The notes under the pieces are model-generated. The model was not told the DNA's origin, ran no database searches, and was given only the letters and a program-made list of their open reading frames with translations. Of a stretch of 64,000 nucleotides of DNA, positions 17,480 to 62,022 are shown piece after piece. This DNA comes from Candidatus Versatilivorator sp. (GTDB lineage Bacteria; Acidobacteriota; Terriglobia; Versatilivoradales; Versatilivoraceae). Positions within the stretch are counted from its first letter, which is position 1, and the number at the start of each line of letters is the position of its first letter. The stretch spans positions 4,480,001 to 4,544,000 of the forward strand of contig OZ242296.1 of assembly GCA_965207735.1 (NCBI GenBank), given 5' to 3'. Made by a program: the position numbers and the translations under genes.

Positions 17480-18135
17480 GCGCCGCGTTTGCCCCCCTCC
17501 GGATCGACTGCGGGCTTCGCCTTTTGGTAGTCACTCTCGGGGCGCCGAGTATGCCCCCCTCCGGATCGACCGCGGGCTGCGCCCTTGTCTCTCCGACTCC
17601 CCCTCAAGGGGGGAGTGATACTTGAGGCTTGCATCAGGCGCCTTGCCCGATTCCTGGGCATGATGTAAACCATGTTCCCGGTCTACCGCATAAACTCCGT
17701 TCCCTCTTCATAACACGGTATCACTCCCCCCTTGAGGGGGAGTCGCAGAAGCCGAGCCGGATGGCGAAGGCTGATGCGGTGGGGGGCAGACGCCGGGCCA
17801 GCTATGGGCGCGGGGTTGTAGCCCCGGCGGGAAGTCCAAGGTCGTGGTAGCCCCCGCAGCCGCGACGCGGCGAATCAATAGCGTCCTTCGGGAACGCACG
17901 GCCCCATCGAAAAACCCACCAACCCCACCCCTCCCACCGAACAAAACCCCTGCGAGCCGGGTGCAGGGACAGGGACAATTGCGGCGCTTGAGAAGATGAA
18001 TTTTTCCAATAGAACGCCCCGGGCGCCAGCCCGGAGATCCCCTCGAGCGGCGAAGCCGCGGCAGCAGGTAGCCGTGGGCGTAAGCCCATGGATTGCGTCG
18101 CGTAAGAGTCGAGCCGCGTAGGCGGCGGCAGCAAA
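17480..18135. repeat. Mosaic repeat cluster (modules A, inverted B, CCCGGGCTGGCGCCCGGG, D)
   Basis: Modules match those at 6010, 3257, 38700 and 59570. Confidence 0.8.
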
Positions 18136-38689: not shown

Positions 38690-39185
38690 TCGCGGGGGGC
38701 CGCGTTTGCCCCCCACCGGCTCGACTGCGGGCTCCTCCGCCGACTCCCCCTCGAGGGGGGAGTGATACTTGAGGCTTGCACAAGGCTCCTTGCCCGATTG
38801 CTGGGCGGGATGTAAACCATGTTCCCGGTCTACCGAATAAACTCCGTTCCCACTTCATAACACGGATATCACTCCCCCCTTGAGGGGGAGTCGCAGAAGC
38901 CGAGCCGAATGGCGAAAGCTGATGCGGAGGGGGGCCAACGCGGCGCCTCCGAACGGTAGCGCCGAATGGCGAAGACTTGTGCGCCGTGAGGGGGGCGCAC
39001 AACCCCAGCCGCCAGGCGAAGGCTGATGCGGTGGGGGGTAAGACGCCGGCTTGTGTCCTCCAGGAACAAATCCACGAAAAAGAGTTATCCACGAAGAACA
39101 ACGAAGGTCCACCAAGGGGTTGGAGGAGGTTCGAGAGGAACTGCCAAGGGAAAAGGATGCGGGCGGGACGCCCGCGCTCCCGGGG
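38690..39185. repeat. Mosaic repeat cluster (A, inverted B, CACGAAG module F, module C)
   Basis: 38760-38900 closely matches 17612-17760; CCACGAAG units at 39072-39118; module C at ~39155-39185. Confidence 0.8.
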
Positions 39186-39225: not shown

Positions 39226-39301
39226 GGCGGGGTAGCTCAGTGGTTAGAGCGAAGGTCTCATAATCCTTAGGTCGGGGGTTCGAGTCCCCCCCCCGCTACC
39301 A
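39226..39301 (+). tRNA. tRNA-Met(CAT), elongator type
   Basis: GGCGGGGTAGCTCAGTGGTTAGAGC..CT-CAT-AA..GGTTCGAGTCC..CTACCA; lacks the initiator GGG/CCC anticodon stem. Confidence 0.93.
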
Positions 39302-39496
39302 GTTCTCCTTCCAACGAAGTCCAAGAAAGTCTGGAATCTGCTAATTTTCAGATACTTAAGCTGTATGCCGTCCCCGATTTCCTGGACAGATTAGACCCAC
39401 CATGCTCAAGCCGCCGGTTTCAGCGCAAGGCGTTGTCTTGTCTTGCCTGAAACAACCGACAAAAGACAAAGAAAAAGACTTATCCACGAAGGGGCA

Positions 39497-41491
39497 GTGC
39501 GCCGTGAAAAGGCGTCTTCTTCTGGCGGGTGCGAACCCCGCCCAACAACTGTCGCTCCGGTTGGTAGCAGCCAGGGCGGATCATGGAGGCAACGAAATGG
39601 TCTGAAGCACTCTGGCGTCAAGGGCCGCCAAGGGCGGCTCAGCGAGCATGCGGGCCGGAACGCGAGTGAACGTCGAGCAGGCCTCGAAACGGACAATACG
39701 GAAGCCGACCCTCCTGTCTTTAGGGGAAGGCCGCTGGCGGATGGGGAAGAGAGCGACGCGGGCACCGATCCGCTTCCGTCGGGGTAGTGACGCTGGCACG
39801 CATGGAAGGGGAAGAAGGCAGCAACACGGGAAGCCCTGGGGGAGATGCGGCACACATCAACCGGGACCCCGCGAGGGGCAGGCCGGGCCGTCAGGGTGGC
39901 GGATGGGTCCGTAGTACCGGAGAAGCCGGGTAACGCCGGTGGAGGGAAGGGACCCTGAGTTGAGAGCAGCATGGAAAGGAGGCAAGGCGTGGCCACTGAC
40001 AAGAGTCTAACAGGGTCAGAGGGGGTTCGGAAATTCCAGACCATGCTACATGCGAAAGCGAAGGAGGACCCCAAGCGGCGGTTTCATGCGCTGTCGGACA
40101 AGGTGTGGCGAGAGGACTTTCTGAAGGAAGCCTGGGCACAGGTACGCCGAAACGGCGGGTCGGCCGGGGTGGACGGGGAGGGCTTCAAGGACATCGAGGC
40201 GTATGGGGTGGAGGGCTGGCTGGGGGAACTGGCGCGGGATCTGAGGGAAGGAACCTACGTACCGAAGCCGGTGCGGCAGGTGCTGATCCCGAAGAAACAG
40301 CCCGGCAAGTTCCGGCCTTTGGGCATACCCTGCATACGGGACCGGGTAGCGCAGACGGCGGCTTTGCTGGTGTTGGAGCCGATCTTCGAAGCGGACCTGC
40401 AACCGGAGCAATATGGCTATCGGCGGGGGCGGAGTGCCAACGACGCGGTCAAACGCGTGCATGAACTCCTGCAAAGGGGTTACCAGGAGGTGGTTGACGG
40501 CGACCTGTCCAACTACTTCGGCGAGATTCCGCATGCGGAGCTGATTCGGAGCATTGCCCGGCGCGTGAGTGACGGGAGGATGCTCAAGCTCATCAAGGCA
40601 TGGCTGGAGATGCCGGTGGAGGAGGACGACGGGAAGGGTGGCAGACGCCGCCGGAACCGAGGGCGCCGGGAGCGGAAGGGGACACCGCAAGGAGCCCCGA
40701 TCTCACCGTTGCTCAGCAATCTCTACATGCGGCGCTTCGTTTTGGGCTGGAAGGTGCTGGGTTATGCCCGGCGCTTCTGTGCGGAGATCGTCAACTATGC
40801 GGATGACTTCCGTGTACTCGGCAGGGCACCGGCGGCAGAGATGCTGACGGCGGTCAAGCGGATCATGGAGGAGCTGAAGCTACCGGTCAACGAGCGGAAG
40901 ACCCGATGCTTGCGGTGTCCGGAGGAACCGATGGGGTTTCTGGGATATCGCATCGGACGCAACTATCGCCCCAAAGGGAAAGGAGCCTACATCGGCACAC
41001 GACCCAGCCAGGCGAGCGTCCAGAGCATCTGCCGCAAGATCAGCGAGTGGACGGCGCCGAGGAACGGGACGCTGCTTCGAGGACAGATGGTAGAACACCT
41101 GAACCGGGCGATGACCGGGTGGGCGAACTACTTCGTTCTGGGGCAGGTGAGCCCGGCCTACCGAGCGATCGACCGCCACGCGGGCGGGCGGCTGCGTCAG
41201 TGGCTCTGTCGGAAGCACAAGGTGAGGACCGGGGGGAGTGTGCGCTTCTCGGACGAGAGACTATGGAAAACCTATGGACTCACTTGCCTGGGGTCGAAGC
41301 CACAGAGCCTTCCGAGGGCGAAGGCATGATCTTGACTGAAAGCCGGATGCGGGAAAACCGCACGTCCGGTTTGACGAGCGGGGGCGAGGAAACGCAGCGA
41401 GGAACGAGATTGAGGCACCGGCGAGTGGCGAAAGCCGCCGGCAACAGCGACTCCCTCGATCTAAGGCCGGCGCGCCTCCCCTCGACTCTAC
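39497..41491 (+). mobile_element. Group II intron (IIB-like, endonuclease-minus), 1995 bp
   Basis: 5' GTGCG; domain V GAAAGCCGGATGCGGGAAAACCGCACGTCCGGTTTG after the ORF; 3' end CTCGACTCTAC; flanks rejoin into a repeat unit also seen at ~62000. Confidence 0.92.
39971..41329 (+). CDS. ltrA: Group II intron reverse transcriptase/maturase
   Basis: RPLGIPCIRDR, GTPQGAPISPLLSNLY, YADD, thumb GWANYF; no HNH domain. Confidence 0.95.
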   Translation: MERRQGVATDKSLTGSEGVRKFQTMLHAKAKEDPKRRFHALSDKVWREDFLKEAWAQVRRNGGSAGVDGEGFKDIEAYGVEGWLGELARDLREGTYVPKPVRQVLIPKKQPGKFRPLGIPCIRDRVAQTAALLVLEPIFEADLQPEQYGYRRGRSANDAVKRVHELLQRGYQEVVDGDLSNYFGEIPHAELIRSIARRVSDGRMLKLIKAWLEMPVEEDDGKGGRRRRNRGRRERKGTPQGAPISPLLSNLYMRRFVLGWKVLGYARRFCAEIVNYADDFRVLGRAPAAEMLTAVKRIMEELKLPVNERKTRCLRCPEEPMGFLGYRIGRNYRPKGKGAYIGTRPSQASVQSICRKISEWTAPRNGTLLRGQMVEHLNRAMTGWANYFVLGQVSPAYRAIDRHAGGRLRQWLCRKHKVRTGGSVRFSDERLWKTYGLTCLGSKPQSLPRAKA

Positions 41492-41784
41492 CGAAGGACC
41501 ACGAAGGGACACGAAGGCGCTGAGGTTAACCGAGACGGGATACCAAGTTCGCGAAGGGATTGTCGATTTCCGATTGTTTCACTCTCGAATGATCCGCACA
41601 CCAGGGCGGGGGTCCGGCTTGCCTGAACCGGAGGCGCCGGCTCGCCAAGCGGAATTTGGCGTTGATGAATCAGGATGGCCAGGGGAGGCGCCGCGCTCGG
41701 TGGCCCGAAATCGACTGGAGTTACCGATATAGACAGGCCCGGAAGACCGGACAGCCTTCCGCGCCGCTCACAGGGGGGCGAAGC

Positions 41785-42861: not shown

Positions 42862-44348
42862 GAGCCTTTTGCAAAATTCGCAGATAGCGGGAATTTTCAC
42901 GTGGGGAAAGATCAAGGAGGGCAGGTGGAAGGAGGGGCAAGACCACTGTCTGTTGTATCATGAAGGTGTCTGAACCACATGATGAACGGAGGTGGAACTT
43001 GCCCCTTAGGGAAACCCTATCACGACACTGGTTCCGGTTTCAACGAGAGCTGTTTCCCCTGCTGGAGGAAGTTTTGGGGCCTCTGGGAGAGCGTTACCAG
43101 CGGCTGGTGCAGGTATTGGAGTTGGTGCGGGTGGAGGAGTTGCTGCCTTACAGTCGGGGCTGGCGTGGCCGGCCGCTGGAGGATCGGGCAGTGCTGGCGC
43201 GAGCCTATCTGGCGAAGTCGATGCTGGAGGTGGCGACCACGCGGGGATTGGTGGAGCGGCTGAGGAGTGAGGGGAGGCTGCGGCGGCTGTGCGGCTGGGA
43301 GAGGGCGTGGGAGGTACCGAGCGAGTCGACCTTCTCGCGGGCCTTTGCGGAATTCGCTGAGAGCGACCTGCCGGGGCGTTTGCACGAGGCATTGCTGGAG
43401 GAGACGCTGAAGGGCCACTTGGCGGGGCATGTGTCGAGGGACTCGACGGCGATTGCGGGACGGGAAAAGCCAGCGGCCAAGGCTGCGCCGGAGGCCAAGC
43501 GGAAACGCCGGCGGGGCCGGCCGCCGAAGGGCGAGCGACGGCCCAAGCGGTTGAGCCGGCTGGAGCGGCAGGGGTCGATGACGCTGGAGGAAATGTTGAA
43601 GGAGTTGCCCAAGGCCTGCGACATCGGCGTCAAGCGCAACGCCAAGGGGCATCAGGAGAGCTGGACCGGCTACAAGCTACACCTCGACGCCATTGACGGC
43701 GGGATTCCGGTCAGTTGTCTGCTGACCTCGGCCTCGGTGCATGACTCTCAGGCAGCCATTCCGCTGGCGACGCTGACGGCAAGGCGGGTCGAGAGTCTCT
43801 ACGACTTGATGGACAGCGCCTACGATGCGCCGGAGATCCGGGCCTTCAGTGAGAAGCTGGGGCATGTGCCGATTATTGACGTCAACCCCCGCCGAAGAGC
43901 TACCTTGAAAGCCGAGCGGAAGCGGGAGGCACTGGCCCGGCGCTGTATCGGCCAAGTGACTCCCGAGGCGCGGCGCTACCGGGAACGCTCGACGGTGGAG
44001 CGGGTCAACGGACGGCTCAAGGAGGAGTTTGGCGGGAGGCAGGTGAGGGTTCGCGGCCCCGACAAGGTGAGGTGCCACCTGATGTTCGGCATTCTGGCCC
44101 TGACGGTGGATCAGTTGATGCGCCTGACGCTCTGAAGACCGGGTTGCCACCCCCAACCGCACAGCAGGTTCGCCCGCCTCAAGGCCGGGAGAGGGTAAGC
44201 TGTGCCTGCGTCCGGCGACCGCTGGCCATCCGGCCATCAGATTCGGGCTTTTTCCTTCAAAAGGGTCTTTGCAGCTGGGTAGTCACCGCCGGAACATCAC
44301 TGTTGCCAGCCCAATGTCATGCCCGATTCCGAATTTTGCAAAAGGCTC
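42862..44348 (+). mobile_element. Insertion sequence (IS1182/IS5-like), 1487 bp
   Basis: Perfect 19-bp IR GAGCCTTTTGCAAAATTCG / CGAATTTTGCAAAAGGCTC; 4-bp target duplication GTCT. Confidence 0.9.
42960..44135 (+). CDS. DDE transposase
   Basis: PSESTFSR, SRDSTAI, GYKLH, HDS, MDSAYD, RSTVERVNGRLK. Confidence 0.92.
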   Translation: MKVSEPHDERRWNLPLRETLSRHWFRFQRELFPLLEEVLGPLGERYQRLVQVLELVRVEELLPYSRGWRGRPLEDRAVLARAYLAKSMLEVATTRGLVERLRSEGRLRRLCGWERAWEVPSESTFSRAFAEFAESDLPGRLHEALLEETLKGHLAGHVSRDSTAIAGREKPAAKAAPEAKRKRRRGRPPKGERRPKRLSRLERQGSMTLEEMLKELPKACDIGVKRNAKGHQESWTGYKLHLDAIDGGIPVSCLLTSASVHDSQAAIPLATLTARRVESLYDLMDSAYDAPEIRAFSEKLGHVPIIDVNPRRRATLKAERKREALARRCIGQVTPEARRYRERSTVERVNGRLKEEFGGRQVRVRGPDKVRCHLMFGILALTVDQLMRLTL

Positions 44349-61979: not shown

Positions 61980-62022
61980 TTCTTCGTGGCCCTTCGTCGT
62001 CCTTCGTGCCCCTTCGTGGATT
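61980..62022 (-). repeat. CACGAAG-type module F (uninterrupted copy)
   Basis: Reverse complement reads ATCCACGAAGGGGCACGAAGGACGACGAAGGGCCACGAAGAAC. Confidence 0.8.

Follow-up and report, generated by a model that had tools for sequence, protein, structure and literature searches.

The window analyzed here, a stretch of 64,000 nucleotides (C1:4480001-4544000), belongs to genome G000, which is assembled as one contig of 5.26 Mb. On its forward strand lies a group II intron of 1995 nt (positions 39497 to 41491; variant A below), one of 13 copies genome-wide, with the hallmarks of such elements: GUGYG...AY ends, a domain V (41340 to 41372, +, in the Rfam Intron_gpII region), and a branch-bearing domain VI, which is long, of the ORF-containing type, and extends with the 3' end from 41376 to 41491 (+). 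The borders had been placed correctly from the sequence alone, since identical ends (GTGCG at 39497 and CTAC at 41491) are shared by 13 of 13 genomic copies and Rfam models matched at 39523-39665 (group-II-D1D4-4) and 41338-41491 (Intron_gpII). Domain IV encodes a reverse transcriptase/maturase of 452 aa (39971 to 41329, +), which matched TIGR04416 with 328.7 bits (cut-off 300) and has its YADD motif encoded at 40796-40807. Pfam detected RVT_1 and GIIM only in this protein, and the absence of an endonuclease domain agrees with the endonuclease-minus (En-minus) status already proposed. The ribozyme was covered by contigs of RNA libraries; such contigs show neither transcription nor splicing. 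A tRNA at 39226-39298, 200 bp 5' of the intron, is a possible source of transcription. Elsewhere in the window, an IS5/IS1182-like transposase was noted at 42960-44135 with scores below all cut-offs, and Acido-Lenti-1 gave three matches, at 18046, 25176, and 59509.

Excision of the intron rejoins TTATCCACGAAGGGGCA to CGAAGGACCACGAAGGGACACGAAG without duplication and leaves the repeat arm intact, as the sequence-only reading had described. The interrupted repeat consists of a 5' part (39441 to 39496, +) with TGAAACAA, an A-rich leader, and the first unit, and a 3' part (41492 to 41620, +) with IBS3 (C), more CACGAAG units, a tail reminiscent of a decayed GxxExxY C-terminus, and TTGTTTCA. Two other repeats of the window that had been compared with it are both intron-free arms: the one at 39072 to 39118 (+; arm at 39088) has GAACAA as its first unit, a misfit to the EBS1 described below, and the one at 62022-61980 (-; arm at 62020) has a matching first unit (GGGGCA/C, the slash marking the insertion point). 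The description of CACGAAG as a multicopy repeat held genome-wide, where the two-unit motif TCCACGAAGNNNCACGAAG occurs 231 times (reversed control, 0), but not for the bare 7-mer in the window, which is not enriched (11 seen versus 9.3 expected). Under a looser rule the genome holds 331 arms (about 330), 316 of them outside ORFs as judged with a crude gene caller. The long form of the repeat is a unit of ~180 bp, often in tandem.

The tail is carried by 197 of the 331 arms, and its translation, judged by eye, resembles the C-terminus of GxxExxY proteins. A GxxExxY match was obtained in 14 of 14 genomes of the genus; those in G000 are only partial, and arms precede a partial GxxExxY gene. Arms of this repeat, in inverted orientation, surround intact GxxExxY/PDDEXK_3 genes at 2 of the 12 fetched loci (L099 and L100), the remaining ten having other short-unit arms or none. 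We infer that the CACGAAG repeat may be a relic of a GxxExxY cassette; the GxxExxY arms are apparently a large repeat family not described before. Across L092-L103, GxxExxY subfamilies were seen with different inverted short-unit arms (ACAGGAT, CACGAAT, and CACGAAG). Separately, a Y1 transposase gave one match. Most arms (in the window, 39480-39488) start with TTATCCACG, bases that vary among arms and that we take to be one base off a DnaA box; some 330 near-DnaA-box copies might matter.

Both intron ends were found in 45 elements of G000. Variant A (loop TGTCTT) has 13 ORF copies, nine of them identical and 12 with an intact ORF (the other is frameshifted); the window copy differs from the majority sequence by 9 changes. 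Ten of these copies occupy canonical arms, one a degenerate arm, and two lie outside the CACGAAG repeat, one of them 5 nt before an ATG and the other directly before a TGA. Variant B (loop TGTAAT) comprises one ORF copy, one ORF-less copy, and one 117-nt copy (C1:4261108, -) that is internally deleted with both ends kept, all at ATTACA/TTGGG in a palindromic element of ~20 copies. Variant C (loop TGAGAA), with one ORF copy and 28 ORF-less copies, occupies TTCTCA/CC (once TTTTCA/CC), the terminal repeat shared by an IS1380 element of 1698 bp and its MITEs. Behind an IS1380-like end at C1:331225 (-) we also observed a 20-nt stub of an intron 5' end. About 3% of the arms in G000 are occupied by introns. 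Among named sequences, the intron protein has its closest relatives in MAGs labelled Terriglobia or Ca. Versatilivorator. The 5' region of the intron was matched in all 13 other genomes of the genus and, weakly, in 1 of 17 further genomes of the family, with at most 21 candidates per genome being scored. Among relatives, loci L155-L157 and L162 (alphaproteobacterial, 75-76% protein identity) have EBS1 TGAGAA and an IS-end flank almost as in variant C, and L013, L025, and L026 (G018, G019) have a variant TGAATT at a repeated TTATTCCAGTAATTCA site.

EBS1 (TGTCTT, 39715 to 39720, +) sits in a stem-loop at 39704 to 39731 (+) closed by CCCT/AGGG at 39709-12/39722-25. The expectation that this loop is EBS1 was borne out by covariation, as loop variants and 5' flanks change together and the closing helix has two-sided changes (16 at the closing pair among 33 aligned relatives). 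UGUCUU pairs at 6/6 positions both with IBS1, GGGGCA (39491 to 39496, +; three wobbles), and with GGGACA (two wobbles), just as had been predicted. The pairing of EBS1 with IBS1 was scored in 104 copies from 10 genomes (fetched copies with readable loop and flank, after dropping truncated copies, one flankless copy, and the second copy in a tandem pair): 94 pair at 6/6 positions, 9 at 5/6, and 1 at 4/6. For the 10 loop variants, mean pairing is 5.8 versus 4.1 when permuted, with 0 of 100,000 permutations reaching the observed value. More distant loci (74-80% protein identity; 28 of 51 parsed) show 6/6 pairing in 20, 5/6 in 3, and at most 4/6 in 5, scored as the best of two offsets, with some low scores probably due to miscalled ends. 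EBS3 is the G at 39787 (+), the base after CGGGGTA, which pairs with the C at 41492. EBS3 and IBS3 are paired in 83 of 86 cases (78 Watson-Crick, 5 wobble, 3 mismatched), and in the distant rows an A at EBS3 faces a T throughout (12 of 12).

The best position for EBS2 is a stretch of six unpaired bases 3' of CTCGAAAC, giving the putative GGACAA at 39691 to 39696 (+), which lies between two supported helices and covaries with the flank. Register and covariation (GGA/TCC, GGG/CCC, GGT/ACC, ATTC/GAAT, and GTAT/ATAC) match it to IBS2 (TTATCC, -17 to -12; 39480 to 39485, +) with 5/6 pairs, the EBS2 of the window intron carrying a C.A mismatch. Another candidate, ATACGG/ATGCGG, was rejected, as it fits variant C only and belongs to a helix whose six pairs all show two-sided changes. 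The spacer between IBS1 and IBS2 measures 5 nt in arms, 4 at IS ends and in most distant relatives, 6 in variant B, and 3 at shifted sites; 4-6 nt is unusual compared with textbook IIB introns. Over 33 of the 61 distinct rows, 95% of cells agree with the named structure, which has 12 pairs with two-sided changes, counts of which are inflated by the kinship of the rows; its covariation support exceeds every shuffle and slid control. Folding the 5' 504 nt as a single sequence gave no useful signal (z 1.08). Exon recognition is IIB-like, with EBS1-IBS1, EBS2-IBS2, and EBS3-IBS3 pairing all found. Features of class C/IIC were not found at this site: EBS2 covaries, and the predicted fold has no hairpin before the insertion site. 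In the portions of the literature available to us, EBS2a is described for IIB1 and IIB2 only.

With 11 of its 13 copies in arms rather than in unrelated sequence, variant A upholds the earlier proposal that the intron targets a dispersed intergenic repeat, but as a preference that is not absolute, 2 of 13 copies being elsewhere. The harmlessness of these sites, also part of that proposal, is judged from their intergenic position only. A competing explanation is that insertion is loose, guided by EBS1 only at RRGRCA/C sites, and that purifying selection leaves survivors mainly in abundant dispensable repeats. The two off-repeat copies, which flank genes without breaking them, fit this explanation, EBS2 is reported to be dispensable for class E/F splicing in vitro (PMC3753933), and Mohr et al. 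bring up purifying selection in their discussion of T. elongatus (PMC2882425). However, only 334 (27%) of the 1242 intergenic RRGRCA/C sites in G000 are in arms, and the probability of at least 10 of 13 copies in arms against this background is 2e-4, which suggests that gene avoidance together with EBS1/EBS3 pairing is insufficient to account for the arm bias. Moreover, the canonical insertions are all in first units (10/10, with 213 first and 135 later sites available; P=0.007), and EBS2 covaries across targets, so that we consider selection on loose insertion unlikely. Within an arm, no unit but the first is preceded by IBS2 (TTATCC), a restriction that would account for the lack of insertions in later units. 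When TCC is required five bases upstream, 283 sites are left, 196 of them in arms, a proportion that is partly circular because the EBS2 rule was derived from occupied sites.

Nor do the insertions look like copies of a single event. In GACACA units, TGTCTT introns land two bases earlier (AAGACA/CACG), and TGTGTT/TGTGTA introns land at GACACA/CG. Variant A copies occupy four unit variants in two registers, two copies are without the repeat, and distal flanks are unshared save for one 281-nt, 89% repeat match. These patterns largely refute the idea that the intron is a passenger, inserted once and multiplied by repeat spread or gene conversion; the tandem arrays of the repeat (86 of 329 neighbouring arms are <400 bp apart) and its resemblance to the arms of a possibly mobile cassette speak for this idea, which we nevertheless hold to be very improbable. 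Avoidance of GGGCCA in G000 was not significant (0/56 versus 9/198, p=0.21). At one unique site, C1:2900343, the empty allele was not seen in four runs, which proves nothing, and a near-exact skip in X1 was discarded as an empty allele since it may be any empty repeat.

Guide-directed insertion, the reading that we prefer, was followed across related genomes. In a tree of domain I with 52 distinct rows, arm-targeting copies form one clade (98/93), which contains 14 distinct rows from 6 genomes and 5 EBS1 variants. Outside G000, 11 of 11 copies of this clade are in arms, one of them in a CACGAAT arm with a matching change in EBS2. GRCRCA is the commonest unit in the hosts of TGTGTT/TGTGTA introns, G019, G024, and G025 (99/135, 49/103, and 19/57), and GRGRCA leads in the TGTCTT hosts G000, G023, and G027 (163/231, 79/206, and 160/354), with GRGYCA units almost as frequent in G027 (156) and G023 (76), where the two classes are co-dominant. 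In most cases EBS1 fits the unit class that is most frequent in its host, an exception being TGACTT, which faces GGGCCA with an A.C mismatch; as these genomes are kin, this matching may be filtering rather than co-evolution. TGGTTT, a sixth loop that would be able to pair with GGGCCA, is present in contigs from two RNA libraries. An arm-targeting copy was not found in six genomes with arms (G026, G029, and four others).

In domain I the introns cluster according to target, and at the 3' end according to whether they contain an ORF. The variant A ORF intron and the ORF-less L035 are 98% identical in domain I and 63% at the 3' end (MAFFT alignments); a gap-tolerant pairwise measure gave ~81% between types and 95% within. 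In AU tests on 41 distinct complete elements, a single ORF-less clade was rejected for domain I (p=1.3e-4) and a single arm-targeting clade was rejected for the 3' end (p=7e-94). These conflicting trees suggest that targeting modules were likely exchanged. Alphaproteobacterial and Binatia relatives that do contain an ORF have the same type of domain VI as the ORF-less introns; the ORF-less body is therefore likely to stem from a sister lineage and to have picked up its A, B, and C modules through recombination, homologous or by template switching, close to where domain I ends. Since every genome is a MAG in which dozens of copies are 85-99% similar, the mosaic introns could in principle be assembly chimeras of repeated elements. 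We give this very little credence: the mosaic recurs in G000, G024 (3 copies), G025, and G027; contigs of X15 and X16, from independent runs, leave the intron at 39951 into ORF-less sequence; and intron contigs in X1/X2 have a depth of ~100 versus 8-11 for unique flanks. At L084 (G029:C1:550260-553500), an element starting with CCCATCTTTAAC, the end sequence targeted by TGTTAA introns, interrupts an intron domain I right after CGGGGTAG; this is probably an IS inside an intron whose sisters occupy IS ends. Head-to-tail intron pairs were seen at L043 (G026) and L178, with EBS3 being U in L043, as in RmInt2 tandems.

Variant C is biased toward the lagging-strand template under every replichore model (22-23 of 29 copies). 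Such a bias was at first supported for variant A (10/13; over all variants 36 of 45 elements, and 23 of 25 in clear-skew regions), but the variant A count depends on the replichore model and becomes 6-7/13 with local skew. The position of dnaA (C1:3541030, 3.54 Mb), far from the global GC-skew minimum near 4.47-4.5 Mb, suggests large inversions in this repeat-rich genome.

The intron likely belongs to class F, as judged from its protein, which is 47% identical to Ni.ha.I1 (g3), 33% to g2, 30% to g1, and 30% to class D, the four named references compared. It has the class F (g2-g4, basal) traits of a missing endonuclease domain and of YADD rather than the FADD of g2. Ni.ha.I1 is assigned to class F (IIF), group g3 (PMC3552965), and introns of this class share the length of ~1.9-2.0 kb, the RT-X protein, YADD, the domain-I layout, and the ends (PMC3552965, PMC3753933), whereas repeat targeting and domain-I exchange are absent from the available parts of these papers. 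In Thermosynechococcus elongatus, TeI3/TeI4 likewise belong to a single lineage that has diverged into EBS families differing in target, copies lacking an ORF are more numerous than those with one, and one family is in an IS (Mohr et al. 2010, PMC2882425). However, those are IIB1/CL1 introns with an endonuclease, and each family is described as a clade after a single ORF deletion (PMC2882425); here, three specificities each occur on ORF-containing and on a distinct ORF-less 3' body, and one main target is a non-coding tandem-unit repeat. RmInt1/RmInt2 of Sinorhizobium meliloti are also endonuclease-minus and target multicopy mobile elements (PMC4615759, PMC5894124). RmInt2, which like variant C uses IS inverted repeats, accepts a mismatch in EBS2 and gives rise to head-to-tail copies, but its IBS1-IBS2 linker is 2 nt versus 4-6 here (PMC4615759). 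Unlike the present intron, both are class D (a class D protein of Table S1 is 30% identical) and, in the accessible text, have no GxxExxY-arm target. Lineages tied to a recurring class of site, as here, are also known from IIC introns at terminators/attC and from a start/stop-codon IIB1 clade; IIC introns read a DNA hairpin and lack EBS2 (PMC4424553, PMC12584367), whereas here the targeted strand is purine-rich, is predicted to be unpaired around the insertion site, and is read by base pairing. The repeat itself resembles TIRtrons, in which a gene lies between long inverted arms that also form a dispersed family (Di Nocera et al. 2013, PMC3733652), but that gene is a tyrosine transposase rather than PDDEXK_3/GxxExxY, and the available text of the TIRtron paper has 0 occurrences of introns.

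The group II specificities named in reviews, as far as their accessible parts go, are homing sites, terminators, attC, and start/stop codons, and homing to multicopy elements, EBS families, and ORF-less passengers are already known from RmInt1/RmInt2 and T. elongatus (PMC4615759, PMC5894124, PMC2882425). In a literature search that covered subscription papers thinly, we found neither introns in GxxExxY or comparable dispersed bacterial repeats nor domain-I exchange. The repeat target and the module exchange raise this case above an ordinary example of the known multicopy-homing strategy.

Taken on sequence evidence, this intact En-minus intron, with guides matching the first unit of a ~330-copy repeat, probably retrohomes there, and its domain I has probably been exchanged with ORF-less sisters. 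In the proposed mechanism, EBS1 of the RNP would pair with positions -6 to -1, EBS3 with +1, and EBS2 with TTATCC, which lies upstream beyond a gap of five bases; the RNP would reverse-splice into DNA, and replication would supply the primer, as it does for RmInt1 (PMC5894124). Through point changes in EBS1, the intron would adapt to whichever unit variant is common in its host, and whole domain-I swaps would hand over ready-made specificity for CACGAAG arms, IS1380 ends, or the palindromic repeat to autonomous or ORF-less bodies, the latter presumably moved by a resident RT in trans. We put forward more tentatively, as a possibility that we do not yet favour, that domain I is a natural exchangeable guide cassette in a community of class-F-like introns, which would maintain several such modules and trade them between autonomous and non-autonomous bodies; one module lineage would be a lasting specialist of GxxExxY arms with EBS1 retuned as the repeats drift.

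These natural controls show how a bacterial retroelement reaches dozens of copies, through several guide sets that each fit an abundant non-coding or mobile repeat. Covariation fixes EBS1, EBS2, and EBS3 for a poorly studied class, including a long and flexible linker, and EBS2, reportedly dispensable for class E/F splicing in vitro, likely has a role in mobility. By exchanging domain I, introns can gain new specificity in a way other than point mutation of the EBS, and the relationship between ORF-less introns and their drivers becomes testable. If domain I does act as such a guide cassette, the intron would be a parasite that follows a mobile repeat family not described so far, and the system would offer a natural map of programmable positions for an endonuclease-minus targetron with a flexible linker of 3-6 nt.
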